Below, one piece after another: positions 16,130-35,300 of a stretch of DNA of 64,000 nt. This DNA comes from a bacterium. GTDB lineage: Bacteria > UBA8248. Position 1 is the first letter of the stretch. Each line of letters starts with the position of its first letter. The notes under the pieces were generated by a model. That model worked only from the letters and a program-made list of their open reading frames with translations. It made no database searches and was not told where the DNA came from. The translations under genes and the position numbers were made by a program. The DNA lies in the NCBI GenBank assembly GCA_965261085.1, contig OZ253442.1, positions 4,160,001 to 4,224,000 on the forward strand, written 5' to 3'.

Positions 16130-16156
16130 CGCACACCTCTCGTCTTTTGTCGGGAA

Positions 16157-19278: not shown

Positions 19279-19851
19279 TCACTCGATGCGCTCCTCGAGC
19301 GTTCGCGTTGACTCCTCGACGATTTCGCACACCTTGTCCATCACCTCGGGATGCTCGCGGAAAGATTCGCGCACTTCCTTGACGATCGCCATCTTGGCGG
19401 CGGCGAAGCCATCCTCGTACTGGAGCCTCAGCCGCTCGGCCGATATGCGGCTGCGCTCGAGCGCGTTCACCATCTGCGCGAGTTTCTCGGGCGTCAAGCC
19501 CTCGAAGGATTCTTTCCCCATCTGCGAGACGGCCTCGACCGCCTGGGCCATCAGCATCCGCCGCGCGGCGGCGGCCACCTTCTCGCCCGGGTCCCTGCCC
19601 TCGCCGTCATAGGCCATAACCTCCTCAATCAACTCATCCACCATGGCTTCCACCCGCTTGGTCTTGCGGATGCCCTCGAGCAGGCGGTTGTTGCGCGCGC
19701 CCACGGAGCCGAGCGCTATCTTCTCCCCGGTGGCCTCCTCGAAGGCCTCGGCCACCTCCTTGTAGGTTTTCCCCTCGGCGAGCAGAGGGTCGACGATTTT
19801 CTCGGCGCCATATTCCACTACTTTCGACCTCCGTCCCCGCCTCCTCTCCAT
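19279..19851 (-). CDS. Mu gp27-like (DUF3486) protein, putative small terminase
   Basis: N-terminal GRRSKV...LL...TY.EV...IALGSVGAR HTH followed by helical region; directly follows a gp26-like gene as in Mu-like phages. Confidence 0.7.
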   Translation of the reverse strand: MERRRGRRSKVVEYGAEKIVDPLLAEGKTYKEVAEAFEEATGEKIALGSVGARNNRLLEGIRKTKRVEAMVDELIEEVMAYDGEGRDPGEKVAAAARRMLMAQAVEAVSQMGKESFEGLTPEKLAQMVNALERSRISAERLRLQYEDGFAAAKMAIVKEVRESFREHPEVMDKVCEIVEESTRTLEERIE

Positions 19852-20183
19852 CAGAGATCTCCCACGAGGATGTCTGGAGAGGCGGAGACGGCTCCTTCGA
19901 GCAGGCCGCGCCCCTTGCGGGTCAGGTGCGCCTCATAATCCGTCAACAGGCGCCCGAAACCGCCCGGGGTGCGCTTTTCCACCAAACCCCGCTCCGCCAG
20001 ATCGTCCACGAAGGCCTCGAGCGTCTCACGGCCCAAGGGCGCGCCGTCTTCATGGTGGCCCGCCTCGCGCAGCGCACTCCAAAGGAGAAGGCTGCCCACG
20101 CACGATTTCACCTGAAAGGCTTCCTGATAATAGAGCGTCTTCAATATGTCGCCGCGCAGGACGCGGGCCGCCAACTCGTTCAC
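19851..20183 (-). CDS. Mu gp26-like winged-helix protein
   Basis: RGDILKTL...LAERGLVE...AHLTRKGRGLLEG...PDI pattern; GGAGGT RBS; TGATG overlap with gp27-like gene. Confidence 0.65.
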   Translation of the reverse strand: MNELAARVLRGDILKTLYYQEAFQVKSCVGSLLLWSALREAGHHEDGAPLGRETLEAFVDDLAERGLVEKRTPGGFGRLLTDYEAHLTRKGRGLLEGAVSASPDILVGDL

Positions 20184-20191
20184 AATGAAAC

Positions 20192-20355
20192 ACCTCCTCG
20201 ATGACTTTCATACCGGTGCGCCGGACGCCGCTCGCCGAAATCCAGGCCTCTTCCAAGCACTGAACTACCTCCTCGATGACTTTCATACCGGTGCGCCGGA
20301 CGCCACTCGCCGAAATCCAGGCCTCTTCCAAGCACTGAACTACCTCCTCCATGAC
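20192..20355. repeat. 75-bp tandem repeat (2 copies plus 14-bp partial)
   Basis: Units start at 20192, 20267 and 20342 (acctcctcgatgac...); the two full units differ at one base. Confidence 0.9.
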
Positions 20356-20403
20356 ATTGATACTGAAATACCAAAGACCCCCGCGCGCGGCGGAAACTCA
20401 CCC

Positions 20404-20455
20404 AATATAGAACGCGGCGCAGGTTCGGGCGGCACGGAAAATGCGGGGAAATGCG
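20404..20455 (-). promoter_or_regulatory. Shared phage-module promoter, copy B (upstream of gp26/gp27-like genes)
   Basis: CGCATTTCCCCGCAT-N31-TATATT; motif identical to copy A. Confidence 0.65.
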
Positions 20456-20518
20456 GACTCGGGCGCGTTGAGAAAAGAATTTCGGAGTTGCACAATGCCG
20501 CCAGAGGAGGAGGCTTCG

Positions 20519-20911
20519 ATGCGCTCGAGTATCTGGATATTCGCCGCACTCGCCACATTCGCGCTGTGGTTCGCGTGGCTGCCCGACGCGCCGGCCCTGG
20601 GCCACGGGGAGGAGGAAATCCTCCTGTTCGCCTATCTGGCGGAAGAGCGCAACCTCCTGAGAATCTCGACCGCCATCGTGGGCGGCATCATCCTGGCGAT
20701 GGGCGCCTTCATCACCCAGCAATCGCGCGCCGAGGCGAGAGAGCACGCGGGACCTGAATTCTCCGGCTTCAAGGTGATGATGCCGGGGCTGCTCGTCACC
20801 TCCCTGGGCGTCGCCGTGCTGTTCACGGCCGCCTTCATCCTGCCCGAGCAGATCAAGATCTTGCACGATCATCCCCTGGAGCATATCGAGACGAAAACCA
20901 CGGAAAAATAG
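20519..20911 (+). CDS. Hypothetical membrane protein
   Basis: GGAGG RBS, TTGAGA-N17-CACAAT promoter, three hydrophobic segments. Confidence 0.7.
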   Translation: MRSSIWIFAALATFALWFAWLPDAPALGHGEEEILLFAYLAEERNLLRISTAIVGGIILAMGAFITQQSRAEAREHAGPEFSGFKVMMPGLLVTSLGVAVLFTAAFILPEQIKILHDHPLEHIETKTTEK

Positions 20912-20939
20912 GAACGGCCCGCGAGCCGCCCTCGTCCCC

Positions 20940-21362
20940 TCACCGCGTCTTTCCCGTCAATTTCTCGACGGTGCGAAGCGCGCCCAGACCCAGCATCCCC
21001 AGGGTGAGTTCCAACAATCCCTCCGCCGAGACGGGATAGGGCACGAGCTCACCGCTCATCAGCACCTGCCGCGTCCAGAGCCATGCGCCCAGGGCGTACT
21101 GGGGGATGAAGTAAAAGGCGAGCGAGACGCCGCAGGTCCACAGGATGAACGGCCTGCCCCCGGCGACGAAGGCGCTTCGGTGGGCGGCCTCTATCTTGTT
21201 GATCTCGTTCTGGGCTTCGGCGGGGCGCATCATCAGCTTTTGTTTTATCGCCTCCGCCGCGCGTCTCTCATCAGGCGTCTCGACGAACTTGTCGATGACG
21301 TTGGCGACACCCTCCGCCGCCGTGATGACGCCGCCGCCGATGAGGTTTTCCAAAAAGGCCAT
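20940..21362 (-). CDS. 3TM-type holin (GTA_holin_3TM/DUF3154-like)
   Basis: IDKF...EIN..EA.H.S.FVAG.RPFI.W...LGMLGLG.LRT.EK..G signature; TGATG overlap with lysozyme. Confidence 0.82.
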   Translation of the reverse strand: MAFLENLIGGGVITAAEGVANVIDKFVETPDERRAAEAIKQKLMMRPAEAQNEINKIEAAHRSAFVAGGRPFILWTCGVSLAFYFIPQYALGAWLWTRQVLMSGELVPYPVSAEGLLELTLGMLGLGALRTVEKLTGKTR

Positions 21363-21775
21363 CACGCGCTCCTCATGCTCTCGGCGACCCTGCCCGCCCG
21401 GGCCGGCAGTTCCCTCGCGTAATCGGAATCGAGCGCCTCCACAGCCGCGCGCTCGTAATCGCCCTCTCTCAGCGCGGCCCACATTCTCTTGAAACCCAGA
21501 AGGCTCGGCACGCCCATGTTGTAGGCCATGTTCAAAACCGCGCGCTGCGCGAGGGGTCTCAGATTTTTATACACCTCGCCGACGCGGGAGCGCTCGAGTT
21601 CTCCGGCCATCAGGCCGAGCCGATGCCGGAGGAGCAGTTCCGCTTCGGCTTGCGATATGCCGTCTTCCAGCAGCGTTCCGTAGCCGATGGTCTTCTTGCG
21701 CTTGCCGTCGAGATACACTTTCGCGACGAAACCCTCCTCGCGCTTGATATCCTCTACGAGTTCGTCCGTGAGCAT
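21362..21775 (-). CDS. Phage lysozyme (GH24 endolysin)
   Basis: EEG...Y.D......TIGYG, NMAYNMG...L.GF..M..AL, A.E.LDS.YA...RA.R. Confidence 0.88.
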   Translation of the reverse strand: MLTDELVEDIKREEGFVAKVYLDGKRKKTIGYGTLLEDGISQAEAELLLRHRLGLMAGELERSRVGEVYKNLRPLAQRAVLNMAYNMGVPSLLGFKRMWAALREGDYERAAVEALDSDYARELPARAGRVAESMRSA

Positions 21776-21993
21776 CCCTCACCCTCCCCTTCAGGCAAGT
21801 CCCCGGCCTCACCCACCTCTTGCATCAGTCGCCGGAGCGCCGCCGCGCCCTTTCGAGCGCTCGCACGATGCGCATAGGCCTGGCTCGACGCCAGGATGCG
21901 TCCGTTCCTCGCTCGCACACGGAAGCGATGCCGCCCGGATTTATCCCTGAAAATATCGACGGGGCGATATTTGGCTCTCTTTACGGCCTGCAT
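21754..21993 (-). CDS. YegP/DUF1508 family protein
   Basis: FRDKSGRHRFRVRARNGRILASSQAY. Confidence 0.8.
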   Translation of the reverse strand: MQAVKRAKYRPVDIFRDKSGRHRFRVRARNGRILASSQAYAHRASARKGAAALRRLMQEVGEAGDLPEGEGEGCSRTNS

Positions 21994-22130
21994 ACGAAAC
22001 CCCCCAGGAAAAAGCCCAACACCACGAGGCATGCGCCCGCAACGATCAGGCGCAAGACAGTGCGCTTTCCCCCAGCCCAGCGCGATAGCATGGCGTCCGT
22101 TTTTCCTTCGAATTCATTTTTCTCAGACAT
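21981..22130 (-). CDS. 49-aa single-TM protein, first gene of lysis cassette (not in ORF track)
   Basis: GAGG RBS; MSEKNEFEGKTDAMLSRWAGGKRTVLRLIVAGACLVVLGFFLGGFVCRP; overlaps the next gene start. Confidence 0.6.
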   Translation of the reverse strand: MSEKNEFEGKTDAMLSRWAGGKRTVLRLIVAGACLVVLGFFLGGFVCRP

Positions 22131-22199
22131 TGCTTTCCTCTCTTTCCGGTAGCGAAATCCCGCGCGTCGCCCGCGAGCGATGCGCCTTCTATGCGGGAG

Positions 22200-22261
22200 A
22201 GTTTATGTCTTGATAGCGCGCGCCCTATGACGGAAAATGCGGGCAACTGCGGGGTGATGCG
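22200..22261 (-). promoter_or_regulatory. Shared phage-module promoter, copy C (upstream of lysis cassette)
   Basis: CGCAT-CACCC-CGCAG-TTGCC-CGCAT-N31-TAAACT: three repeats at 10-bp period, same spacing to the -10 box. Confidence 0.6.
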
Positions 22262-22401
22262 CCCCTGATTCCCCATGCGCGCGGAAAACATCGAAAACGG
22301 CGTTTCAACCGGCCGGAAAGGGGTGATAAAATGCGCATCGCCCAAAGTCGTTTGATATAATGCGCGACGCAGCGCATGCCGCCACACAAAGGAGACGAAC
22401 A

Positions 22402-22890
22402 ATGAAAAAACTGACGGCCACCCTCCTCATCGCCGTATTCAGCCTGGGGCTCGCCGGGTGCCGCACGGACGGAAGCATGGACAAACAGACCGGCGGAGCG
22501 ATTCTGGGCGGAATCGCGGGCGGCCTGCTCGGCTCGCGGGTCGGCAAGGGCCGGGGACGCCAGGCGGCGACCATCGCGGGCGCCGTTCTCGGCAGTCTCG
22601 TAGGCAGTTCCATCGGAAAACAACTCGACGAGCGCGACCGCCTGCTGATGGGGCGCAGAACGCAAACAACGCTCGCGCGCGGCAAGTCGGGCGTGGCCGG
22701 CACATGGGTGAACCCGGATTCGGGAAACCGGGGCACCATCACGCCCAAGCGCACCTACCAGGTGAGAAGAGGCGCGACAAGCACCTATTGCCGCGAGTTC
22801 CAGCAGACCATCACCGTGGGCGGCAAGACAGAGCGCGCCTATGGCCGCGCCTGCCGCCAGCCCGACGGTAGCTGGAAGATAGTCAACTAG
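22402..22890 (+). CDS. 17-kDa surface antigen-like glycine-zipper lipoprotein
   Basis: Lipobox LAGC, GGxxGG zipper, WVNPDSG, YCREFQQTITVGG...ACRQPDGSW. Confidence 0.9.
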   Translation: MKKLTATLLIAVFSLGLAGCRTDGSMDKQTGGAILGGIAGGLLGSRVGKGRGRQAATIAGAVLGSLVGSSIGKQLDERDRLLMGRRTQTTLARGKSGVAGTWVNPDSGNRGTITPKRTYQVRRGATSTYCREFQQTITVGGKTERAYGRACRQPDGSWKIVN

Positions 22891-23010
22891 GCGCGAACCG
22901 CGCCATCGGCGCACATCGTAAATGCTCCTCGACCACGCCGGGAAATCCGCCCGCCTGGAGTCCGCACTTCTTGAGGGATATAATCCGGGTTCACCCACAA
23001 GGGGCGTCTC

Positions 23011-23409
23011 ATGAAAAGACACATCTGCGCGGGCGTGGCGTTCATGTTCTTCGTATCCGGGTGTGCGGGCTCGGGACCCATTCCGGTGGTGCAATTCGTA
23101 CCCGGAGACAAGAAACGCAACTGCGCGTCGCTCCAGGCGGAAATCAAGGCCAACAAGAAGGAAATCGAAAAGAAGACCACCGAGCGAACGAACAAGACGT
23201 TCAAGAACTTAGGCCTCGGAGCGACGGGCGTGTTCCTCATCGCGCCGTGGTTTTTCATGGATTTAAAGGGCAAGGAAGCGGACGAGACGAAGGCGCTAGA
23301 GCGGCGAAACGCCGCACTTCGCCGCATCGCCTTCGTCAAGGGCTGCAACGCGCCGACTCCCATCGTCACTCACCAGAGAAAACAGAAAGCGGGAGAGAAA
23401 GTGAAATAG
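23011..23409 (+). CDS. Hypothetical lipoprotein
   Basis: Lipobox VSGC; GD...C..L..EI...WFFMDLK pattern. Confidence 0.7.
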   Translation: MKRHICAGVAFMFFVSGCAGSGPIPVVQFVPGDKKRNCASLQAEIKANKKEIEKKTTERTNKTFKNLGLGATGVFLIAPWFFMDLKGKEADETKALERRNAALRRIAFVKGCNAPTPIVTHQRKQKAGEKVK

Positions 23410-23568
23410 CACCGAGAATCACGACAAATCGAGCCGATCATGGACTTAACAAACCGCACCATCTGGAACTTCCGCCTAGCAAGGAATATAATCCATATTT
23501 AAGCAAATTCATCGACCAAATAGATCAGAAAGTGGTCGAGAAGCATTTCAACACCTAGGATCAATAAT

Positions 23569-24540
23569 GTGAATACCAATACAACCATTCGCGAGCCAAG
23601 CGCTAACGTCACGAAGGAGGCGCCTTGCCGCCAAACACGGTATCCATCACCCGCTCCAATCAGTTATGTCAGGATCAACGAACTTGAAAGACCGCCCTTT
23701 GAAACCATAGATCGGTCACTACTCATATACGGGGATGCCCATCAAGCGCTTGACTTGTTGCCGGATGAATCCGTGCAAACTGTTGTTACGTCCCCGCCGT
23801 ACTGGTCGCTTCGAGATTACGAAGTAGAAGAGCAGCTCGGTTGCGACGATGCCTTGGAGGATTACGTAGAAAGCATCGTGAAAACTTTCGAGAAAATTAG
23901 GCGCGCTCTTCGGCCTGATGGAACGGTGTGGCTAAATATTGGGGACGCGTACACGTCTGGAAACCGCCGCTACCGGGCACCGGACAGAAAGAATCGCGCT
24001 CGTGCGATGAAAGTCAGGCCGCCGACTCCAAGCGGACTGAAGCCGAAAGACCTGATAGGTGTCCCGTGGCGATTGGCGTTCGCGTTTCAAAAAGCCGGAT
24101 GGTGGCTTCGCTCGGAAGTGATCTGGCACAAGCCGAACGCACATCCGGAATCTGTTCGGGACCGCCCCACGAAAGCGCACGAGACATTGTTTCTACTATC
24201 AAAAAACCAAAACTACTATTACGATGTTGGAGCCGTCCGGGGGCCGAACGATCGGAGGCTACGCACTGTCTGGGATATTCCAACAGAGCCCAGAAAGAAT
24301 GGACAAGTCGACGAGCACCCAGCGATTATGCCAATGTCGCTAGCAAGCAGATGCGTCAACATTACCACCAAGCCAGAAAGCGTTGTCCTCGATCCATATG
24401 CGGGCTCGGGAACAACTTTACTCGCTGCGCAAAAACTCGCGCGAAAATGGGTGGGTGTTGAACTCAAAGCCTCATTCGTGAACCTGATCGAGCGACGAAT
24501 GAACAGTAAATGGCTCTCCAAGAGCTTAAATCCAAACTAG
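23569..24540 (+). CDS. Beta-class N4-cytosine DNA methyltransferase (M.SmaI/Cfr9I-like)
   Basis: TSPPY before DPYAGSGTT; GLKPKDLIGVPWRLAFA. Confidence 0.85.
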   Translation: MNTNTTIREPSANVTKEAPCRQTRYPSPAPISYVRINELERPPFETIDRSLLIYGDAHQALDLLPDESVQTVVTSPPYWSLRDYEVEEQLGCDDALEDYVESIVKTFEKIRRALRPDGTVWLNIGDAYTSGNRRYRAPDRKNRARAMKVRPPTPSGLKPKDLIGVPWRLAFAFQKAGWWLRSEVIWHKPNAHPESVRDRPTKAHETLFLLSKNQNYYYDVGAVRGPNDRRLRTVWDIPTEPRKNGQVDEHPAIMPMSLASRCVNITTKPESVVLDPYAGSGTTLLAAQKLARKWVGVELKASFVNLIERRMNSKWLSKSLNPN

Positions 24541-25255
24541 ACCAGCTATCACCAGTCAAAGTGCAGTTCGTGGCGAAGGTTATCGAAGCCCTATCCAATC
24601 CGCCACAAGTAAGCATCAAAAAGGGAACATGGATTACTCGCTCCGCGGATTGGATAGAGTATTTCGGCCTCGCGCTTTCATTACATCACGGAACAACCAC
24701 AGAACCTCTGGACCGGACCATGTTCGAGACAGTATTCAGGAATGCCTGTACTTCCATGAACTGGAAAGTCGATGAACCGGGAAGCCCGACCAGGCGCTTT
24801 TCGATCTTGAAGTTCAAGCAGGCAATGAGCCCAAAAGACGAATTTCGTTGAAATCGACCTCTGCAAAAAACTTGTCAGAAACGAGAGCGCATATTTCCAA
24901 ACTGACCGAAGCGGCATGGATACAGGATCTGCGCAGAGCGCAAGAACGACGCAACCAAACGCTCAGTTTGTTCAATGACTATACGAACGCCGAAGATGCA
25001 ATCGTTATGTTGAGGGCTTTTAGAGAGGGAAACAATATCCCGCATCGCTACCAGCTTATCGAGATTCCAACTGCGATCTTTGAGCCGGTTCAGGAAGCTC
25101 CGGTAGAAATTTTCAGGAATGACGCGCCAGTTATCGTATACAATATGAGAGGAAATACCGTCGCTCGGGTCGCGATAGATCGTTCCGATGCAAAAATTAC
25201 AATCCGTAGCATCCTCCTGAGTGCGTGCGTTGTTCATGCGGAATGGCTTACCTGA
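24510..25255 (+). pseudogene. SmaI-like restriction endonuclease with a 1-nt frameshift near 24800
   Basis: Two overlapping ORFs join as ...PTRRF/DLEVQAGNEPKRRISLKSTSAKN...; HH.....L....FE..F, LK...AKN...H.SK..E, YQL.EIP and C.VH..W resemble R.SmaI as recalled. Confidence 0.7.
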
Positions 25256-25329
25256 CCAAACCTACGTGTTAGCCAGTAAAAAATACTTAACGCATCGCCT
25301 CGCCGCCGCATTTCGCAAAGGGTCACGCC

Positions 25330-26181
25330 ATGGCGAAAAGACGCACAAGATATCTTCTCATCAGATCACTCCTCATCGCCGCCCTGGGCGTCTGCTTTGT
25401 GAGCGTCCCTCGCGCGAATGCCAGAGAATGCTCCTTTGGCCCCTACACCGGACGCTGCCGCGACATCCGGCTCATGCGCTCGGTCAAGGGCGACGCGGAA
25501 AAACTCGTCTCGGCGCTCTCGATCCTCTGGGTCGAGGCGGGTTATCTCTCGACAGATGAGGCGAGCGATTTACACCAAAGGATAGACGCAGGGATTAAAG
25601 CCGTGGAGAAGTTTCTTGACCTTCCGTTCTCACGCGCGGCCTACGGGCAGGAGAAAATCGAGTTCTTCGTCCACGGCAGGCGTGCTCCTTCGCACACCAT
25701 CACGGCCTACAGCCCGCGAAAATACATGCACCCCGTCGTGTTCCTCTCCTTCGCCAAAGAAGGGAGATCGCCCTATCTGCATGAGACGGTCCACGTCATC
25801 GCGTGGGATTGGAACACCCTTTGGCTGAAAGAAGGACTGGCCGTTCACTTGAACGATCGCTTAAGCGGCTACGCCGCCTTTCCCAATTTCGGCGAATCAA
25901 TCGACGCTTTCGCCGGCCGGGTGTTGAGACGCGAGTTCCCTCCCGCGATAGAGGCGCTCGATCTGGTGGGCGAAAACGGCATCCCCAGATTCGAGGACAG
26001 GCGCGTTCGGCGCATGTTCTACATTCTCGCGGGCTCCTACGCCGGCTATCTCCTGCGCGAGTGGGGCGTCAAAAAACTCATGCGGGTCTACGCCGCAAAG
26101 GACACCAATGCCGCGATTCAAAAAGAGACGGGAAAACCCGCCTGGCGATGGAAGGAGGCATGGCTGGGTGAGGTGAGGTAG
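25330..26181 (+). CDS. Secreted HExxH (peptidase MA-like) protein
   Basis: Signal peptide; LHETVH...WLKEGLA gluzincin pattern. Confidence 0.65.
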   Translation: MAKRRTRYLLIRSLLIAALGVCFVSVPRANARECSFGPYTGRCRDIRLMRSVKGDAEKLVSALSILWVEAGYLSTDEASDLHQRIDAGIKAVEKFLDLPFSRAAYGQEKIEFFVHGRRAPSHTITAYSPRKYMHPVVFLSFAKEGRSPYLHETVHVIAWDWNTLWLKEGLAVHLNDRLSGYAAFPNFGESIDAFAGRVLRREFPPAIEALDLVGENGIPRFEDRRVRRMFYILAGSYAGYLLREWGVKKLMRVYAAKDTNAAIQKETGKPAWRWKEAWLGEVR

Positions 26182-26259
26182 ATTCTTTGGCGTCTGTTGT
26201 GTGGGAATGGTAGCAAAACCGGTAAAGACCTTACATTGACGACATAAAATCAAAACAGA

Positions 26260-27192
26260 TCATTTTAAGTCGTAAAATTTTAGAGCTGACTCAGTCAATA
26301 ATCGCGTCGCGACCGAAACGCCAACTTTCCATGTACCGTTTGCCGCTTTTTTTATGTTTTCGGCAAACCATTCTTTCGCCTTTGCTCCAAATGGTTCCTC
26401 TGCGCTCCCCGACTCCTCGGTCGAGAGGATATCGGCAAATTCTTCCATATCGGCTTGTGGCAGACCTTTGGACACAAGAAATTCGACGAAAGCATCTTTG
26501 TCATCTTTGCCAATGGAGACGCTAAGATTGGCTCCTTCGCCATAGTTTGTAACTGAAGTTAGATTACCGACATCACCGTGAATAGTTTGATTGTAAATCT
26601 GAGTCACCTTCTCTGCGCTCCCCATATCGGACTTTCCGGGCTTTTCAAGACTAACTTCAGCAGCAACTGGTACAGATTTCTCAAGCTGAATGGTTAATTC
26701 GAGCACCCGAACTCGAACCGCGTGCTGAATTTCCACGAGTGCTGCGCGCGATACAGTACCTACGACGCTATTACAAGCATAACCTTCATAGATCTTGCCC
26801 TGTAAAAATAGAATCAGATTGGACGCATCGATTTGCAAGGATCCATTATCAGGCGATCTTCCGATGAGGTCATCAATTGCAGCGACATTTAGTCTAATTT
26901 CGAAATCCGTCCATTTGTCGCCAGCGAATTTTTCGACGAGGTATCCAGGTATCGGAACGTTCCTAAGTTCACTTCCGAAAGGACCAAAGAACGTCCCACG
27001 ATACGAAACGGGGATTCTACGATAATCTGGAAGTTCCACGCCTTCCGGATAGCCTTCCGACTCGTATTTCACCCATTCTTCCAAAGGGCCGCTTCCAAGC
27101 CTCGCCGCAAGTAGGCGCAACTTGAGAAGAATGGGCGCAATACTCTGTTCGCTTTCAATGATGGATGTCTGTATGTCGCGAAGTAGGCTCAT
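26260..27192 (-). CDS. AbiTii-domain protein
   Basis: N-terminal L..IQ.......ILLK..LLA..L....L.EWV..E..GY......PDYR motif; low GC. Confidence 0.75.
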   Translation of the reverse strand: MSLLRDIQTSIIESEQSIAPILLKLRLLAARLGSGPLEEWVKYESEGYPEGVELPDYRRIPVSYRGTFFGPFGSELRNVPIPGYLVEKFAGDKWTDFEIRLNVAAIDDLIGRSPDNGSLQIDASNLILFLQGKIYEGYACNSVVGTVSRAALVEIQHAVRVRVLELTIQLEKSVPVAAEVSLEKPGKSDMGSAEKVTQIYNQTIHGDVGNLTSVTNYGEGANLSVSIGKDDKDAFVEFLVSKGLPQADMEEFADILSTEESGSAEEPFGAKAKEWFAENIKKAANGTWKVGVSVATRLLTESALKFYDLK

Positions 27193-27290
27193 TGGTGTCT
27201 AGCAATGGGCGAGGAAACTCGGTAACCCAAAACCTAAAGGCGGTAAGATAGTAAGTCAATCGGAGTTATAATCTCCCCGCTATACTCCTA

Positions 27291-27325
27291 GTAGACGAAG
27301 GGCGGTTCACGAACCGCCCCTACGG
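27291..27325 (-). repeat. REP-like palindrome (GTAG type)
   Basis: Minus strand GTAGGGGCGGTTCGTGAACCGCCCT. Confidence 0.7.
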
Positions 27326-27451
27326 ATGAGATTGACTCCTGCATTCGTCGGTGGCGGTGAAATTTCGAGGTTGGGTATCGTGCCCGTGAGGCTGTTGTCG
27401 CCGCAAGTTTCCCACGTGCGAATTGTCCAGCCCGAAACAACCGGGCAAAAG

Positions 27452-27481
27452 AAAAGCCCCCCGGGTTTCTCCGGGAGGCTT
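27452..27481 (-). terminator. Intrinsic terminator, copy 1
   Basis: AAGCCTCCCGGAGAAACCCGGGGGGCTTTT. Confidence 0.8.
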
Positions 27482-27502
27482 GATTTCGTTTCAGGCTTGC
27501 TG

Positions 27503-27538
27503 CTAGAAGCCGGGGTCCTCGTCGTGTGTATGAAACAT
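27503..27538 (-). CDS. 11-aa peptide MFHTHDEDPGF
   Basis: AGGAG-8nt-ATG...TAG; conserved second copy at 29032-29067. Confidence 0.6.
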   Translation of the reverse strand: MFHTHDEDPGF

Positions 27539-27588
27539 CGCTTGGTCTCCTTTCAGCGGCTAGGTAATTACAAAACCACCTAAGTGGT

Positions 27589-28197
27589 TCAATTATCCCA
27601 TTTCCGGCATAGATTTTCAAGACCTTTATATAGTCGGTTGCCCCTTCGGTTTCTCAGGTCCGCAATCCACGGCTCGAATACGTCATAGTAGCGTAAAACA
27701 TTTGTCTGGAACAGTTCGCGAATGATGTCTTCGTTGACGAAGCCTTTATCGACCAACACCGCCAAGTCTTCCAGGTAATTCAAAACATTCGTAATGTTCA
27801 GTTCCAGAATGTCATCGCCTTTGATTTTCTCTTGTATAATCCTCAGCCTCTCCTCCCTCGGTTTGGCGGCTATGGGTTTTATTAGCCCGATGACGGCTTT
27901 TTTAGAGTCGAAAAAACTTGCGGTATTCCATTCGGAGGTAAGAGACATCGTGCGGGTCATTTGCTCGGATTCCACATTCGCATAAACGCTTTGAGCAATG
28001 TAAAAAGCGCTGACGATCGCGGCTGCGGCGCCAACGGCAATGGCGATAAACGTCGCCAACTCCTTATGGGCAGGCAAGAAGAAATGCACGCCGACTATCA
28101 AGCCGACGAAGATGATGGCGACCACGCCAATATGAACCGTGAACCTGCGCTCGAATTTAAGATTGAAATCGAATGCTTTGGAAAAATCTCTCGCCAA
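27589..28197 (-). CDS. DUF4760-like membrane-anchored protein
   Basis: Two N-terminal TMs; VLNYLEDLAVLV..G...E.I...F....L......PWI...R......Y..LE.L...W; GGAGGT RBS with TTG start. Confidence 0.75.
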   Translation of the reverse strand: MARDFSKAFDFNLKFERRFTVHIGVVAIIFVGLIVGVHFFLPAHKELATFIAIAVGAAAAIVSAFYIAQSVYANVESEQMTRTMSLTSEWNTASFFDSKKAVIGLIKPIAAKPREERLRIIQEKIKGDDILELNITNVLNYLEDLAVLVDKGFVNEDIIRELFQTNVLRYYDVFEPWIADLRNRRGNRLYKGLENLCRKWDN

Positions 28198-28233
28198 TTT
28201 CAGACCTCCACGCGAACTCGACCACCCTTCGAT

Positions 28234-28302
28234 TCACTTGGGGTCCCCTGGCGACTCGTTTGAGTGGTTAAACGTTCGCCAAATATACCTCTTTCCACTC
28301 AT
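28234..28302 (-). CDS. 22-aa peptide MSGKRYIWRTFNHSNESPGDPK
   Basis: GAGGT-6nt-ATG; shares F-x3-[DN]-E-x-P-G with the 11-aa peptides. Confidence 0.45.
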   Translation of the reverse strand: MSGKRYIWRTFNHSNESPGDPK

Positions 28303-28428
28303 ATCTCAACCTCATCCTGCATTGCTCCGCCCGGTAGTGATGAAAGGGTTTCTTGCTTCCCCTCCTCGGTCGAAAGCGCAGGCTTCCCCTCCTCGGGAAA
28401 GCCTGACCTGATCAGTCGGAATCGACCC

Positions 28429-28809
28429 CTACTCCCGCATCCCGCCGAATTTCCATTCCAGATCGATCGGAAAATCCTCCTGCATCTTCTCGACGTAGGC
28501 GAGCACGTCCTCGCGGCGAAAGCGCGCGCTCTTAAACGAGGGATGGTTCTCGGGCTGGCGGACGCCGGCGCGCGGGGGCGGGCGGCGCAGATAGACGGGC
28601 CGGAGGCAGGGCGCATCGCTCGAGCAGTCCTCGGCGATGATGGCGTCGAGCGTGCGGTAGCTCTTATAGCCGAGCACCTTGGCGAGCATGGGTTTGGTGA
28701 GAAACGCTTCTTCCTCGAGAATCCGGCGCGGCGTTCTCGGGTCGGGCGGGGCCTGTTTCTTGCTCCTCTCGCGCCTCTCGCTCCCTCGGGTATTCTTTGC
28801 GGGCGGCAT
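28429..28809 (-). CDS. Xis/MerR-like (HTH_17-type) DNA-binding protein, copy 1
   Basis: FLTKPMLAKVLGYKSYRTL...ARFRREDVLAYV; GAGG RBS. Confidence 0.65.
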   Translation of the reverse strand: MPPAKNTRGSERRERSKKQAPPDPRTPRRILEEEAFLTKPMLAKVLGYKSYRTLDAIIAEDCSSDAPCLRPVYLRRPPPRAGVRQPENHPSFKSARFRREDVLAYVEKMQEDFPIDLEWKFGGMRE

Positions 28810-28979
28810 CAGCAAAGCGCCTCGGCGAGCGGGAGGACGGACACGTCGTGGCGGGATACTCGTAACAGAGACTTTATCAACATAAGCCGGAGGGGGCGGA
28901 TACGTCAATTCATGAAGCGGGGAGATAGCGTATCGAATTCCCGGCGAGGATTGTCCGCCCGAGATGACCGAACCTAAAG

Positions 28980-29009
28980 AAAAGCCCCCCGGGTTTCCCC
29001 GGGAGGCTT
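28980..29009 (-). terminator. Intrinsic terminator, copy 2
   Basis: AAGCCTCCCGGGGAAACCCGGGGGGCTTTT. Confidence 0.8.
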
Positions 29010-29031
29010 TATTTCGTTTCAGGCTCCATTG

Positions 29032-29067
29032 CTAGAAGCCGGGGTCCTCGTCGAGTGTATGGAACAT
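29032..29067 (-). CDS. 11-aa peptide MFHTLDEDPGF
   Basis: TAAGGAG RBS overlapping the upstream stop codon, 8-nt spacer. Confidence 0.6.
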   Translation of the reverse strand: MFHTLDEDPGF

Positions 29068-29079
29068 CGCTCGTTCTCC

Positions 29080-29652
29080 TTAGTATAGATGATGTCCTCT
29101 GGCTTTCGCGGTGGCGAGTTCGACATTGAGCAGTTCAATTCTTTCCCTGGCTACGCTCAAACTCTTGAGCATTTTCTCACGCGCTCTCAGATAAATGGCG
29201 ATGACACCAACGACCGCTATCGTCATCGGAGAAATCAGGACCATGTGCGCCGCCATGATTTTAGATATTTCACTTCTGAACGCATAAATTCTGTTTCTCG
29301 TCTCTTCGTTTTCGATGCGCTCGGTCCGCTCCCGCCATTCGGCGTAGTCGTTCGCTACATGTGAATTCCCGGAACGCGCGAGGCTGACCATGCTCATGAC
29401 GATTCTCCAGATCGTAACGCGGTGCCCGTAACGAATCAGCGCATTGATGAGCAGCCTGAGGTCCGTATATGCGGGATGGGTGAACTCTAAGTGGCCTGCG
29501 TTCGCGTATTCAAACAATTCATCCCTGAGCTTGAACAGTCTTTGCCTGAAATAATCGACGCGGTACGGAATCCAGAACTGATACCAAATCAGCCAGGCGA
29601 TGAACAACACCAAGCAGAACCTCAAGACGTGAAGAGCGTCTTCTCCAATCAT
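29080..29652 (-). CDS. Hypothetical membrane protein
   Basis: N- and C-terminal hydrophobic segments; YRVD.FRQRLF.LRDELF...HPAY..LR..IN..IR; GGAGG RBS. Confidence 0.7.
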   Translation of the reverse strand: MIGEDALHVLRFCLVLFIAWLIWYQFWIPYRVDYFRQRLFKLRDELFEYANAGHLEFTHPAYTDLRLLINALIRYGHRVTIWRIVMSMVSLARSGNSHVANDYAEWRERTERIENEETRNRIYAFRSEISKIMAAHMVLISPMTIAVVGVIAIYLRAREKMLKSLSVARERIELLNVELATAKARGHHLY

Positions 29653-29656
29653 TCGT

Positions 29657-30058
29657 CTAATCCTCCGGCCTGGATTGACCCTGTCGGGTGAGGCGGCTGG
29701 AATTGCGATTCGCGTCTATCAATTTCTCATACTTTTCACGGATATCGTGAAATTGCTCTATCGTTTTTCGCCTGAGAGACCTCTCAAATCGCCATCCCAC
29801 AAGAGCGATAATCAACGCAAGGACCAGAAAACCTTCCAGCTTCCCGGAAACAACGCGGGCTATCGCCTTGATTCCAATATCGAGTATTGTTGATTTGCCT
29901 GCAATGGAGTCTAGCGCAAGATAGATGAACCAAACAATAACCGTCAAAAACACCCATTTTGTTTGGGAAATCGTATGGTGCCATATATCGAGTTTTCGAT
30001 TCTGGATGAGGAAATCGCGCTGTTCCTGACGCTCACGAGGTGACGGTCGTCTGCTCAT
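29657..30058 (-). CDS. Hypothetical 2-TM protein
   Basis: Two TMs then RRKTIE...EK.ID.NR.SS.LT..G..RPED. Start may extend to 30124. Confidence 0.65.
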   Translation of the reverse strand: MSRRPSPRERQEQRDFLIQNRKLDIWHHTISQTKWVFLTVIVWFIYLALDSIAGKSTILDIGIKAIARVVSGKLEGFLVLALIIALVGWRFERSLRRKTIEQFHDIREKYEKLIDANRNSSRLTRQGQSRPED

Positions 30059-30169
30059 AACTTTCTCAGTGACGCATGATCCTCGTGGTGCAATATTCAT
30101 AGAACATCCGATGAATCCATGCAACTCGCTTTGGCATAAAGCGATGCCTCCCCTCCCCGTCGGAACTGC

Positions 30170-30550
30170 CTACTCCCGCATCCCGCCGAATTTCCATTCC
30201 AGATCGAGCGGAAAATCCTCCTGCATCTTCTCGACGTAGGAGAGCACGTCCTCGCGGCGAAAGCGCGCGCTCTTAAACGAGGGATGGTTCTCGGGCTGTT
30301 TGACGCCGGCGCGCGGGGGCGGGCGGCGCAGATAGACGGGCCGGAGGCAGGGCGCGTCGCTCGAGCAATCCTCGGCGATGATGGCGTCGAGCGTGCGGTA
30401 GCTCTTATAGCCGAGCACCTTGGCGAGCATGGGTTTGGTGAGAAACGCTTCTTCCTCGAGAATCCGGCGCGGGGTTCTCGGGTCGGGCGGGGCCTGTTTC
30501 TTGCTCCTCTCGCGCCTCTTGCGCCCTCGGGTATTCTTTGCGGGCGGCAT
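30170..30550 (-). CDS. Xis/MerR-like DNA-binding protein, copy 2
   Basis: About 10 nt and 5 aa differences from copy 1 by manual comparison; TGATG-coupled to the upstream gene. Confidence 0.65.
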   Translation of the reverse strand: MPPAKNTRGRKRRERSKKQAPPDPRTPRRILEEEAFLTKPMLAKVLGYKSYRTLDAIIAEDCSSDAPCLRPVYLRRPPPRAGVKQPENHPSFKSARFRREDVLSYVEKMQEDFPLDLEWKFGGMRE

Positions 30551-30831
30551 CAGCAAAGCGCCTCGGTGAGCGGGGTGACGGACACGTCGCGGCGGCGGGC
30601 TCTCTTGGCCCGGACGAGCGCATCGGCGCGCGCTCGCGCGGAGGCGAGATTCGGGAAGATGAGACTCACGCGCCTCTCGCGGGTGAGATCGCGGTAGACG
30701 AGCAGTGCGGCTTCTTCGGGCACGCCGAAGCCCTCATCCATGAGATCGGAGAGCGTGCGCTCATGGGTTCCGATGAAAGAGGCGGCCTCGTTCATGACGT
30801 ACCTCCCGGACATGCGCATGGTGATTCGCAT
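30550..30831 (-). CDS. Hypothetical phage-like early protein
   Basis: AAGGAGG RBS; coupled to the HTH gene. Confidence 0.65.
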   Translation of the reverse strand: MRITMRMSGRYVMNEAASFIGTHERTLSDLMDEGFGVPEEAALLVYRDLTRERRVSLIFPNLASARARADALVRAKRARRRDVSVTPLTEALC

Positions 30832-31141
30832 GGCGCCTCCTTGATGAGAAGTGATACATGCCCGGATGACCCGCGTGGTCTTGAAGGTGCAATGGACTCG
30901 GAAGGGGGCGCCTCGCGGGCGGTTCGAGGCGCCGTTTTCGGTGGGGAAGATGGTGGGGTGTCGCGGGACGGATCATCCGGGCAAGCTGAATTCCTGAAAA
31001 TATCGATAAATTTAGATAAATTGACGGGGTTTTTCGATAAATTCATGGAATTTCCTTTTTTCTTCATAAAGTCAATAATATCAATCAAATAACTCATTCA
31101 TCCGTTTGTGTGCGATCTGCTCGTTCGCACATCAAGCACCC

Positions 31142-31172
31142 TGAATATATCTATATATATTCATATTGTCAA
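31142..31172 (-). promoter_or_regulatory. Near-consensus sigma70 promoter overlapped by a palindromic operator
   Basis: TTGACA-N17-TATATT; TGAATATAT-ctat-ATATATTCA inverted repeat at 31142-31163. Confidence 0.7.
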
Positions 31173-31252
31173 TAAAAATATATATAAATAATTATATCTG
31201 GAGGTATGTCCGTACAAACTATTGATAGGAAAGGAGTTGCGGAAAGGTTGCG

Positions 31253-32137
31253 CTAGTCGATATCCCTGCCCAGAAGCTCGATGAAGCGCTTTACGCCGCC
31301 GTGGAGCTGCTTGTCGCGTCTGTGGATGAGACCCAGGGGCCGGATGATGCGCTCCCCCTCGAAGGGCAGCACCGCCAGCGTGTTCATGGCCCTTTCGTTG
31401 TGAACGGCCGAGCCGGGCAGAATGCTCACCCAGGTGTCGATGAAGAGCGCCTCTTTGATGCTCTCCACGTTGTCGAACTCCATCACGACGTCCACGCTCA
31501 CGCCCGCTTTGCGCAAGACCCTGTCTATGGCGTTGCGAATGGAGAGATCGCCGTCGAACGCCACGAAGGGCTCCCCCGCGAGGTCGGAAACCCTTACCGC
31601 GTGGCGAAAGGCAAGTTGATGCCCCGGATGAGAGACGAAGAACATGGGCTCATCCTTGAAGGGCACGACCCGCAGCGCCTTGTCGCGCGGGGGGTAGGAG
31701 AGAATCCCGACGTCGGCCGTATCGTCCAGAACCGATTGCACCACCTTCTCCGGATGCAGACATTCCAGACGAACCCGCGCCTGGGGATACAGGGTGCGGA
31801 ACCGCTGCATGTAAGCGCCCATCTGGTGAAGACCCACCGAGTAGATGGCGGCGACGCGCACCTGCCCATGCACCTCGCCGATGCCGTGTGATATCTCCGC
31901 GCAGACCTGGTCGAATTCCCCCAGCATCTTGCGGCAAGCCTCATAAAACCGGGCGCCTTCTTCGGTGATGCCGAAAGGCCGCTTGCTCCTGTCGAGCAGC
32001 TCGACGCTCAAATCCCCCTCGAGCTGGCGAAGCGCCTGACTCGCTGCGGACTGGGTCACGCCGCTTTGGGCGGCTCCCTTGGAAAAACTTCTCTCCTGGA
32101 TGATGCGGCAATAGAGCCGCAAGGTCTCGATGTTCAT
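31253..32137 (-). CDS. LysR family regulator divergent from gltBD
   Basis: SFSKGA...TQSAASQ..RQLE..L...LLDR; MEFDNVESIK. Confidence 0.93.
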   Translation of the reverse strand: MNIETLRLYCRIIQERSFSKGAAQSGVTQSAASQALRQLEGDLSVELLDRSKRPFGITEEGARFYEACRKMLGEFDQVCAEISHGIGEVHGQVRVAAIYSVGLHQMGAYMQRFRTLYPQARVRLECLHPEKVVQSVLDDTADVGILSYPPRDKALRVVPFKDEPMFFVSHPGHQLAFRHAVRVSDLAGEPFVAFDGDLSIRNAIDRVLRKAGVSVDVVMEFDNVESIKEALFIDTWVSILPGSAVHNERAMNTLAVLPFEGERIIRPLGLIHRRDKQLHGGVKRFIELLGRDID

Positions 32138-32344
32138 GAGAAAAGGCTACAACATAATCTATTCTAATGCAATATATTAAAAATTTTAGTTTGTCTTATT
32201 TTCATAGTCATGTTATAGTCTGGATTCTGTTGTATGGAAATCACCACACGATATCCATAAGACGCATTCAGAAGTTCCCTCGTACCATGGGAAGACGGGG
32301 AACTTGCCGAGAGAGATACTCTGAGAGAGAAAGTTGGTGAAACA

Positions 32345-35300
32345 ATGAGAAAACCCTTACAAAAACAGGGTCTGTATGATCCTGCCTTCGAGCACGACGC
32401 ATGCGGCGTGGCTTTCGTCGTGGACATCAAGGGGCGCAAATCCCACGACATCGTCCAGAAATCCCTCACCATTCTCCGCAACCTCGCCCACCGTGGCGCT
32501 ACGGGGTCTGAAATCAACACGGGCGACGGGGCGGGAATTTTAATCCAGATACCCGACAAGTTCTTGCGCAAGGCTTGTGAGGCCGAAAAATTCAGGATTC
32601 CGGCGGAAGGCCGCTACGGGGTGGGTTCGGTGTTTCTCCCCAAATCCTCGAGCCGGGCGAATGAGTGCGAACAAATCTTCGAGTCCATCGTGTACGAGGA
32701 GGGAGCCGTCGTTCTCGGCTGGAGGCCGGTGCCGAACGATCTCTCCTCGGTCGGGCCCACGGCGCGCGAAACCGCGCCGCAATTTCGCCAGGTCTTCATC
32801 GGCGGATTCGATGACTCCCTCGACGCCATGGGGATAGAACGTAGGCTCTACGTCATCAGAAAGCGCGTGGAGCACGCGATTCGCGAATCGGACATAAGGG
32901 ACGAGTTCTTCATCCCCTCGCTCTCCGCGCGCACGATGGTCTACAAGGGAATGCTCACCGCAACACAACTCGAAGACGTATTTCCGGATCTGAGCGACCC
33001 GGACATGGAATCGGGACTGGCGCTCATCCACTCGCGCTTCTCCACCAATACGTTCCCCTCCTGGCCCCTGGCGCACCCGTACCGGTGCCTCGCCCACAAC
33101 GGGGAGATAAACACCCTGCGCGGCAACATCAACTGGATGCGCGCCCGGGAGGTGTTCTGCAAATCTCCGCATCTGCCCGATCTGGAGAAAATCCTGCCCA
33201 TCATCGTCGAGGGCGGAAGCGATTCCGCCATCTTCGACAACGTGCTGGAATTTCTCTACATGGCCGGCCGGGAATTGCCCCATGCCGTGTTGATGATGAT
33301 TCCCGAGCCCTGGGTGGGCCATGAGTCCATGAGCGCGGAGTTAAAGGCGTTTTACGGGTTCCACGCCAGCCTCATGGAGCCGTGGGACGGCCCCGCCTGC
33401 ATCACGTTCACCGATGGTTCGGTCATCGGCGCCGCGCTGGACAGAAACGGCTTGCGGCCCGCCAGATACTACGTCACGCACGACGACCTGCTCGTCATGG
33501 CGTCCGAGGTGGGCGTTCTCGACATCCCGCCCGAGAACGTAAAGCTCAAAGAACGCCTCCACCCGGGACGAATCCTTCTCGTGGACACCGAAGAAGGCCG
33601 CATCGTCGACGATGAGGAAATCAAGTCGCGCTATGCTTCGGAGCATCCATACAAGGAGTGGCTGGAGGCGCATCTACTGCACCTGAACAGGCTGCCGGAC
33701 GCTTCGGAACTTCCCGAACCCGACCACCAGACCATCCTCAAAAGACAAAAAGTCTTTGGATACACGCAGGAAGATCTGCGGTTTTTCATCGGCCCCATGG
33801 TGAACCTGAAAAACGATCCCACGGGTTCGATGGGCAACGACGCGGCGCTCGCCGTCCTCTCGAATCGGCCGCGCCTTTTGTACGATTATTTCAAGCAGTT
33901 GTTCGCCCAGGTGACGAACCCGCCCATCGACGCCATTCGCGAAGAAATCGTCACGCAGCTATCCTCCACCGTAGGCCCGCAGAAAAACCTGCTGGCCTCG
34001 GAACCGGACTCCTGCCAGCAAGTGAAGCTCGATTCCCCCATTCTCAGCAACGGGGATCTCCACAAACTCGCTCGCATCGATCAGCCGGGTCTGAGAGCGG
34101 TCACCCTGCCCATTCTCTTCTGGGCCGAAGATGGCCCCGAGGGCCTCAAGCAGGCGATGGAGGAGTTATGCAGAAAGGCCAGCCGCGCCATCAAGCAGGG
34201 CTATAGCTTCATCATCCTCTCGGATAGAGGGGTATCGAAAGAGTACGCCCCGATCCCCGCCCTTCTGGCCACCGCCGGCGTTCATCACCATCTCGTGCGG
34301 GAGGGAACCAGAACGCGCATCGGGCTTATCCTCGAAACGGGCGAAGCGCGCCAAGTGCATCACCTGTGCCTGTTGCTCGGCTTCGGGGCCGCGGCCATCA
34401 ACCCGTATCTCGTTTTTGAAACCATCGACGACATGATCAGAAACGGGCTTCTCAACGACATCGACCCCGACACGGCCAGGAAGAACTACATTGCCGCGCT
34501 CAACAAGGGCATCCTCAAGGTGATGTCCAAGATGGGCATCTCGACCATCCAGTCGTATCGCGGCGCGCAGATATTCGAGGCCATCGGCTTGAAGCGCGAT
34601 TTCGTCAAAAAATATTTCACCTGGACGGCCTCGCGCATCGGTGGGATCGGCATCGACGTCGTGGCCCAGGAAACCCTGAAGCGGCTCAAAAACGCCTTCC
34701 CCGAAAGGCCCGTCGGCTCTCAGGAACTCGAAGGCGGCGGAGACATCCAGTGGCGCAGGGACGGGGAATTCCACCTGTTCAACCCCGAGACCGTGTTCAA
34801 GCTGCAGCACGCCACGATGTCGGGGCGGTATGAGATTTTCAAGGAATACACCGGCAAGGTGGACAACCAGAACAAGCATCTGGCCACGCTGCGCGGTCTT
34901 CTGGATTTCAGGACGGCGGAAAACCCCATTCCTCTCGAGGAGGTGGAGCCCGCCGAGGAAATCATGAAGCGCTTCAGCACGGGCGGCATGTCCTACGGGG
35001 CCTTGAGCTCCGAGGCCCACGAAACGCTGGCCATCGCCTTAAACCGCATCGGCGGAAAATCCAACTCGGGCGAGGGCGGAGAGGACTCGAAGCGCTATAC
35101 GCCCGATGAGAACGGCGACTTCAGGCGAAGCGCCGTGCACCAGGTGGCGTCTGGACGCTTCGGGGTAACGAGCGAGTATCTGGTCAACTGCACCGACCTG
35201 CAGATAAAAATGGCGCAAGGCGCCAAACCCGGAGAAGGGGGCCAGCTCCCCGGCCACAAGGTCTATCCCTGGATAGCCAAGACGAGGCACTCCACGCCCG

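Follow-up and report, generated by a model that had tools for sequence, protein, structure and literature searches.

We analysed a 64,000-nucleotide stretch of a Nitrospinota genome (contig OZ253442.1, positions 4,160,001 to 4,224,000; hereafter the window) in which a very short open reading frame (ORF), referred to below as the micro-ORF, occurs twice. In particular, a unit of about 110 nt is present in two copies on the minus strand, at 27444-27552 and at 28971-29081, and each copy consists of the Shine-Dalgarno sequence AAGGAGA, 7 nt, an ATG with ten more codons, a TAG stop codon, and a spacer (about 23 nt) that leads into a G+C-rich hairpin and its T-run. In copy 1 the Shine-Dalgarno sequence lies at 27546-27552, with the end of its GGAG 8 nt 5' of the ATG, and the micro-ORF (27503-27538) encodes MFHTHDEDPGF; orthologues of this copy are found in 12 other genomes of the genus and on two metagenome contigs. 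The Shine-Dalgarno sequence of copy 2 (29075-29081) stands at the same distance from its ATG and overlaps the TAA stop codon of the gene for a 190-amino-acid (aa) membrane protein, and the micro-ORF (29032-29067) encodes MFHTLDEDPGF. An original prediction, made from the DNA letters, had described both ORFs, each with AGGAG at 8 nt and a terminator downstream, and we found both on the minus strand where it had placed them. The differences that it listed between the copies were likewise all seen: a synonymous TTT/TTC change, a CAC/CTC change that exchanges His for Leu, and substitutions and an indel in the spacer between the Shine-Dalgarno sequence and the ATG and in the sequence that follows the stop codon.

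The homology between the two copies sets in at the ribosome-binding site and ends just beyond the terminator, with 92% and 96% identity for the two halves reported by a repeat finder, and the 23-nt core of the unit occurs twice in the window against 0 occurrences expected from 100 shuffles. No further copy of the unit was found in the 4.27-Mb genome to which the window belongs (all other matches had E >= 0.24). The hairpins are terminator-like on both strands, because the A-rich spacer supplies the T-run for the opposite direction, and the G+C-rich hairpin and subsequent T-run of a Rho-independent terminator can be read at both units on either strand. Terminator 1 (27444-27481, minus strand) has a stem of 11 pairs at 27481-27454 followed by a T-run, and a plus-strand site at 27462-27482 followed by ATTTCGTTTC; terminator 2 (28971-29010, minus strand) has a stem of 13 pairs at 29010-28981 with its T-run, and a plus-strand site at 28991-29009. 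Changes in the terminator arms among relatives preserve pairing. A second, tentative hairpin (GGCUU/AAGCC, 27494-27511, minus strand) may hold the stop codon of copy 1 in its loop. (A promoter-like site, TTGAAA-17-GATAAT with a TG, matches the consensus at 10 of 12 positions at 27592-27620 on the minus strand, within the 3' end of the DUF4760 gene and about 40 nt upstream of the ribosome-binding site of copy 1; judged by this consensus match, it could yield a separate micro-ORF transcript.)

Read along the minus strand, the locus comprises genes for a 93-aa protein, a helix-turn-helix (HTH)-like protein, and 155-aa and 190-aa membrane proteins, then a micro-ORF with its terminator, a copy of the HTH-like gene, a DUF4760 gene, a micro-ORF with its terminator, and an AbiTii gene. 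The window thus contains two modules in tandem, each with an HTH-like gene, a cargo gene or genes, a micro-ORF and a terminator, and it is because of this tandem arrangement that the micro-ORF occurs twice in this genome.

Conservation of the micro-ORF among relatives

The unit was followed in 23 genomes of one Nitrospinota genus, including the genome that contains the window (G000), and in 42 genomes of the family, 19 of which belong to eight other genera. A DNA search recovered the unit in 14 of the 22 other genomes of the genus; outside the genus two genomes matched, in the terminator part only. A back-translated pattern for DEDPGF followed by TAG matched in 14 of the 42 family genomes, all of them in the genus (13 of the 22 others and G000), and in none of the 19 genomes of the eight other genera; a reversed control pattern gave no match in the 42 genomes. 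With the same pattern we retrieved 35 stretches from a species-genome collection, 13 of which are this locus, 29 from metagenomes, 2 of which are this locus, and a single match in viral contigs. The intact micro-ORFs number 16, comprising 14 at the same chromosomal locus in 13 of the 23 genus genomes and 2 on metagenome contigs. No comparable small ORF marked by the hexapeptide and stop was found outside the genus, where a few short open frames among the chance matches (for example L105) were not examined further.

The encoded peptides conform to the consensus M-x(4-6)-DEDPGF and have 11 codons, or 13 in two divergent species. The residues that precede the hexapeptide vary (MFHTH-, MFHTL-, MLHTH-, MFRTH-, MFRTR-, MYRTR-, MYLTR-, MPCIHPT- and MNHRYEK-), and the signature that they share is DEDPGF directly before a stop codon. 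The original prediction had proposed a broader signature, F-x3-[DN]-E-x-P-G, on the strength of a third ORF, MSGKRYIWRTFNHSNESPGDPK, which does exist at 28234-28302 on the minus strand, just upstream of the DUF4760 gene. Its ATG is kept in none of the five relatives that have DUF4760 at the same place: TTG stands there in two, and the frame is open only in L038, with a stop codon in L041 and L046, an indel in L039, and a sequence that cannot be aligned in L043. The letters that are conserved around its start fit instead a promoter-like site for DUF4760 (TTGAGA-16-TATATT, 28309-28282, minus strand, 10 of 12 positions), which overlaps the start of the ORF and whose hexamers are retained in the relatives. 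Thus, since the third ORF is not conserved, the broader motif is not a family signature.

When the 16 intact copies are aligned, DEDPGF-TAG varies in three of its 21 columns and is fixed in the other 18; each variable column is a third codon position (two with GAC/GAT and one with GGC/GGA). Variation therefore falls on three of the six third positions of the DEDPGF codons and on none of the 12 first and second positions, a distribution with a hypergeometric chance of 20/816 = 0.025. As a yardstick we took lysR from the same 12 genomes, in which the codon is invariant at 5 of 10 invariant Asp columns, 5 of 16 Glu, 1 of 11 Pro, 4 of 17 Gly and 8 of 15 Phe. These rates predict about 2.2 invariant codons in the tip, where three are seen, which argues that its silent sites turn over at about the ordinary rate while its replacement sites are frozen. 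The signals for translation are kept as well, with the Shine-Dalgarno sequence retained in 15 of the 16 aligned copies (the remaining one, in G020, reads AGGGA) and the ATG in 16 of the 17 pattern-bearing copies. Length changes in the start region come as whole codons: the ORFs of G020 and G007 have an unrelated N-terminal part, an upstream sequence that cannot be aligned and two additional codons, and are still in frame behind a ribosome-binding site. Two copies have decayed. In G012 the ATG has become ATC beside a destroyed DUF4760 gene, and in G013, which has no cargo, the ribosome-binding site and ATG are lost, SG replaces PG, and TAC stands in place of TAG.

We considered whether the conserved block might instead be an RNA element, part of a 3' untranslated region, a terminator or a small RNA, in which the open frame is incidental. 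The unit does end in a terminator with co-varying arms, its A-rich spacer doubles as a T-run for the converging gene, and the promoter-like site upstream of copy 1 would fit such an element. Moreover, the hairpin around the stop codon can form with stems of 4-6 pairs in all 16 copies, and it shows one two-sided compensatory change, in G007 (GGAUUC/GAAUCC), that includes the change in the Gly codon, so that some constraint at the RNA level is indicated too. Together with the fact that RNA helices, too, would accommodate the C/T changes at third positions, this weighs against reading the conservation purely in terms of a peptide. The same small hairpin is equalled by 76 to 1381 of 2000 shuffles (4-69%), and in folding of the RNA the terminator is the sole firm structure (z-scores -0.96 to -2.9), the remainder of the core unit folding no better than shuffles; nor did a scan of 24000-33000 give an Rfam match with E <= 1 at the unit. 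An incidental frame also fails to account for variation with a period of three, for the retention of a ribosome-binding site and ATG, and for whole-codon length changes in lineages whose upstream sequence is otherwise unalignable, and we consider an element of RNA alone quite improbable.

Two further points were discarded. The invariance of TAG is no clue, for the stop codons of neighbouring genes are invariant too (14 of 14 for both p283 and the holin gene), and read-through fusion to the preceding gene is not a general explanation because the micro-ORF shares the reading frame of the 190-aa gene but not that of DUF4760. On the comparative evidence, all of which comes from one uncultured genus, the micro-ORF is probably a translated micro-gene under selection, and in this respect the original prediction, which took the ORFs for small genes missed by gene callers, looks right. 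Annotation overlooks genes of 11 codons, and comparative evidence as clear as this is available for few of them.

A variable slot and its cargo

Gene order was compared in 19 loci of the genus (12 + 7; that of G019 is visible only through its short contig). Throughout the genus the order is gltB, lysR, p93, HTH-like gene, slot, p160, p289, lysozyme, holin, p234, p110 and Gp27. In the sister genera p93, the HTH-like gene and p289 are kept, cargo and micro-ORF are absent in 10 of the 10 loci examined, and in at least five of these the HTH-like gene runs directly into a similar hairpin with flanking A- and T-runs. Cargo and micro-ORF thus represent a genus-specific insertion between the HTH-like gene and an old terminator. 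We read the micro-gene as the closing cistron of a variable slot, which lies between the HTH-like gene and that gene's two-way terminator and holds interchangeable accessory cargo in the form of DUF4760, the pair of 155-aa and 190-aa membrane proteins, or ClpP-like SDH proteases.

The sister genera also bring up the idea of a young ORF with no function that hitchhikes on cargo exchange as the cargo recombines through its flanks, the HTH-like gene and the terminator. In keeping with such an origin, the element is restricted to one genus, the sister genera lack it in front of a similar terminator, and the homology between the two modules begins exactly at the ribosome-binding site and extends through the terminator. 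What this idea leaves unexplained is that no first or second codon position of the tip varies among species in which the synonymous sites of lysR have largely turned over, and that copies released from cargo (G012 and G013) decay; we regard it as extremely improbable.

Accessory ("moron") and defence hotspots are known to lie between conserved prophage genes, and the slot resembles them in its conserved flanks, in a variable interior with unrelated accessory genes, and in the AbiTii and, by sequence, restriction-modification-like ORFs alongside. It differs from them in that the slot ends in a conserved micro-gene irrespective of its cargo, and in its carrier, which is not an active prophage but a phage-derived cluster that looks vertically inherited and is perhaps domesticated.

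Three types of cargo precede the micro-ORF. The DUF4760 protein does so in eight modules (copy 1 of G000, G005, G014, G017, G018, G019, G021 and one metagenome contig); in the window it has 202 aa (27589-28197, minus strand; PF15956, E = 1.6e-24; phrog_2284), two hydrophobic N-terminal stretches, and no PADLOC match. The membrane-protein pair, found in three modules (copy 2 of G000, G003 and G011), consists in the window of the 155-aa protein (29657-30124, minus strand; phrog_27816, E = 7.8e-10) and the 190-aa protein (29080-29652, minus strand; phrog_13156, E = 2.6e-20, with a weak PADLOC match to 1TM-TIR, E = 8.5e-5). The third type, a ClpP-like protease of the SDH type (PF01972, E = 5e-9 to 3e-18) that is in some cases accompanied by small ORFs, is found in four modules (G007, G008, G020 and one metagenome contig). 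In a lysR tree (one gene, midpoint rooting) SDH cargo occurs in the two deepest peptide-bearing lineages and in the crown, and for that reason may be the oldest cargo type.

Wherever intact cargo lies on the same strand, the micro-ORF is intact (16 of 16 modules), whereas among the nine genomes with the HTH-like gene and no intact same-strand cargo it is intact in one and lost or decayed in eight. (The intact one is in G022, which has a 3' remnant of DUF4760; the decayed copies are those of G012 and G013; and G001, G002, G004, G006, G015 and G016 have none.) Note that the association draws on related genomes and few independent events, so that the counts overstate the independence of these observations, and that it could also be explained by deletions that took cargo and micro-ORF together; both considerations tell against a functional tie. 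In the slot of G006, a chimeric frame of 58 aa of the 190-aa membrane protein and the last 116 aa of DUF4760 (L087, about 2766-3257 in the orientation used) marks a recombination scar, with the micro-ORF gone and the terminator kept.

The original prediction had interpreted the peptides as ligands or antitoxins for the DUF4760 protein, a view that the finding of three unrelated cargo types with the same peptide does not support. In particular, MFHTHDEDPGF, the commonest form, occurs with all three. The check that had been proposed with it, a search for small ORFs with the motif and a ribosome-binding site beside DUF4760 homologues, gave no support for a specific link: within the phylum set, where flanks were examined in 9 of 51 genomes, the sole homologue found outside the genus (G037) runs directly into a terminator without a small ORF, and inside the genus such ORFs also follow other cargo. 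Searches for relatives of DUF4760 in phage records (tblastn) and in viral contigs found none; in the literature searched, the domain is named in one paper, a genomic-island survey.

A broader version of this interpretation is that the peptide is a short-lived antidote or ligand for whatever cargo is present, silencing a toxic membrane or protease effector until translation stops. The strict co-occurrence of intact micro-ORF and intact cargo fits such a role, as does the position of the slot among defence-type genes, namely AbiTii here and, by sequence, methyltransferase/Vsr-like or ATPase-like ORFs in relatives. The tip never varies, however, and even the full peptide can be identical beside unrelated cargo of all three types. 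Moreover, the SDH proteases share only 31-37% identity while the tip is constant, so cargo and peptide do not co-vary; the DUF4760 homologue of G037 does without the ORF; and, save for the one weak match, no cargo protein matches a PADLOC model. We consider a general cargo antidote very improbable. The gene p283, tried as an alternative partner of the peptide, was rejected, because G020 and G007 lack it, G017 has it in fragmentary form, and G004 and G006 carry it with no micro-ORF. What stands out is a micro-gene that is retained while the genes that precede it are swapped, that decays when they are lost, and whose tip shows silent changes only.

Resemblance of the DEDPGF tip to docking tails

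The original prediction had offered, as an alternative, that the acidic, Phe-ended terminus mimics the C-terminal tail of the single-stranded DNA-binding protein (SSB). In favour of this suggestion, DEDPGF is the exact tip of 170-aa proteins in five Aeriscardovia genomes, and the one of these proteins that was scanned is classed as an SSB by Pfam (E = 2.6e-24); against it, the SSBs of the genome itself end in DDDIPF (the main SSB), GEDIPF or GDDIPF. The hexapeptide also ends a 300-aa viral protein of the RecT family (L129), behind a long low-complexity linker. Thus, DEDPGF with a free carboxylate occurs in nature as a docking tip of the SSB type. As in such tips, three acidic residues of the micro-peptide lead through a short turn to a Phe that ends the chain with its carboxylate free. 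The D-E-D stands directly before the last three residues (-5 to -3) in 16 of 16 intact copies, and the hexapeptide of the micro-peptide is identical to that of the Aeriscardovia SSBs and of the one viral RecT. It differs in that its Phe is preceded by Pro-Gly, where the SSB motif has Pro before Phe, and in being a free peptide of 11-13 residues with its own ribosome-binding site and start codon rather than a tail joined to an OB-fold DNA-binding domain through a disordered linker.

Our tentative preference is for a free peptide that acts through its tip as a tail mimic and is not a dedicated ligand of DUF4760, although on sequence grounds we would put this no higher than a reasonable possibility. 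The peptide would act free, by way of the invariant DEDPGF tip and its carboxylate; the tip would dock in a pocket that normally takes an acidic, Phe-ended tail, such as the tips of SSB or of phage single-stranded DNA-binding proteins; once docked, the peptide would serve as a competitor or a cofactor; and its variable, often basic N-terminal half would matter little.

Two observations weigh against a tail mimic. SSB tips typically have a penultimate Pro (hydrophobic-Pro-Phe), and all six full-length SSBs of the genome end in Ile-Pro-Phe; with its Pro-Gly-Phe end, the peptide lacks this penultimate Pro. Furthermore, none of 17 matches to a DDDIPF tip in viral contigs is a free micro-ORF (15 lie in ORFs of at least 128 aa and 2 are cut by the end of the DNA), so that free tail-mimic peptides are without precedent there, with the limit that the search pattern demanded GGAG and ATG and so made for a narrow test. 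In the genome of the window, no protein other than the two micro-ORF products ends in an acidic stretch followed by PGF, and among the listed matches in the literature on SSB C-terminal tails, mimicry and phage, the titles and abstract openings describe no free tail-mimic peptide. (As a separate observation, phage proteins of 194-878 aa in viral contigs L184, L191, L194, L195 and L196 end in canonical DDDIPF, and borrowing of SSB-type tips seems to be common among phage proteins.)

The main rival of the tail mimic is an ORF that acts in cis. Leader or sensor peptides of attenuators include those of the trp/his type and the acidic, proline-containing mgtL type, and the mgtL leader is said to act by destabilisation of the ribosome by its nascent chain. 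Here, the DEDPG nascent chain would destabilise or stall the ribosome and thereby alter the folding of the stop-codon hairpin or terminator, or the decay of the cargo mRNA. Like attenuator leaders, the micro-ORF is very short, is led by a ribosome-binding site beside a terminator hairpin, and places acidic residues and a proline near the start of the chain. Stretches of negative charge with an occasional proline among them are described as destabilising the ribosome, above all when they lie close to the N-terminus (10.1101/2021.02.02.429294, PMC9718836). A cis-acting ORF would also account for conservation that is focused on the last six codons and the stop with a free N-terminal part, as in nascent-chain regulators, and for a possible hairpin with the stop codon in its loop, although the invariance of TAG carries no weight here either, the neighbouring genes keeping their stops too. 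The micro-ORF, however, closes an operon at its 3' end, where an attenuator peptide would lie in a 5' leader. In 11 of the 13 loci of relatives with an intact micro-ORF, and on both metagenome contigs, the next gene is p283, which converges on the terminator and leaves nothing downstream to regulate; same-orientation genes behind both copies of the micro-ORF are found only in the genome of the window, and this scarcity of downstream targets weakens the case for a sensor. In addition, only the terminator is firm in folding, no conserved antiterminator or other alternative pairing was found for the micro-ORF, the small stop-codon hairpin being weakly supported, and the invariant Gly-Phe is left unexplained. 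On balance we consider a cis-acting sensor unlikely.

Clp ATPases dock on ClpP through a loop. A bolder form of the tail-mimic proposal is that the module encodes either a free mimic of an SSB-type tip or a peptide whose Gly-Phe end copies the docking loop of Clp ATPases on ClpP, and that the module competes for such pockets in phage-host conflict. The ClpP variant was suggested by the presence of ClpP-like proteases as cargo in the deepest lineages; we hold this bolder form to be rather doubtful. Two other classes of small product also differ from the micro-peptide: secreted signalling peptides of the arbitrium AimP type are made from precursors with a signal or export sequence, for which a peptide of 11-13 residues with an acidic C-terminal half is too short, and type I toxin-like small proteins are hydrophobic membrane-spanning peptides, in contrast to the polar and acidic micro-peptide. 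Should the micro-peptide be a free copy of a docking tail, it would represent a novel and highly economical means of disrupting protein-protein hubs or of joining them; should it act in cis, it would be a terminal rather than a leader sensor ORF. The significance of the micro-gene is tempered by its restriction to one uncultured genus.

Other features of the cluster and the window

The genes around the modules are phage-derived and include a lysozyme, a GTA-type holin and a Mu Gp27-like small terminase subunit; the cluster sits between lysR/gltB and two S15 peptidase genes. It spans 19279-31000 of the window and holds one chromosomal place across the genus, with p93, the HTH-like gene and p289 (and p110 and Gp27 in some loci) recurring in sister genera. 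No capsid or tail genes follow the cluster within the window. The first gene of module 1 encodes a 128-aa protein (28429-28815, minus strand) that is 95-96% identical to its copy 2 (30170-30556, minus strand), the latter being a backbone gene across the family, present in 21 of 23 genus genomes and 12 of 19 sister-genus genomes. By eye this protein reads like an excisionase-type HTH protein; it has no match in Pfam or PHROG, and a metagenome search with it as query returned no relative. The 93-aa protein p93 (30550-30831, minus strand), encoded upstream of the HTH-like gene, is also part of the backbone by locus comparison. Downstream of copy 1 of the micro-ORF lies the AbiTii-domain gene (26260-27192, minus strand; PF18864, E = 4.3e-39; PADLOC AbiTii, E = 1.1e-32), an insertion that is present in this genome alone among the loci compared. 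Beyond it, p283 (283 aa, 25330-26181, plus strand), which in most genomes of the genus converges on the terminator, encodes a protein with an HETVH (HExxH) motif and a signal-like hydrophobic stretch at the N-terminus; this protein has no Pfam or PHROG match.

Between the HTH-like gene and DUF4760 (28340-28428), direct repeats of about 21 nt (GACTGATCAGGGAGGG.TTGC-like) occur that are also found in L038, L039, L041 and L046, in one to about four copies depending on the species, and that could be binding sites for the DNA-binding proteins encoded upstream. About 165 nt behind the terminator of copy 2 (28816-28975) recur behind the terminator of G008 (L042, about 8290-8440), where they lead into ORFs resembling a cytosine methyltransferase and a Vsr-like nuclease. 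This stretch appears, from its recurrence, to be the common left end of further insertions, which would make the region a mosaic of accessory and defence-type genes.

Elsewhere in the window, two adjacent paralogues of S15 X-Pro dipeptidyl-peptidase (581 and 578 aa, 14384-17893, minus strand) share about 71-80% DNA identity over the repeat blocks found. Tandem repeats are present inside the p234 gene (2 x 75 nt, 95%, 20183-20332) and at 38529-38627 (3 x 33 nt), and a gene for an N6/N4 DNA methylase of 582 aa (39504-42001, minus strand) adjoins an IS1595-family transposase. In G017, the full copy of the Gp27-like gene is followed by two extra fragments of it, which cover about 44 aa at about 91% identity (L043, 13966-15183 in the orientation used).

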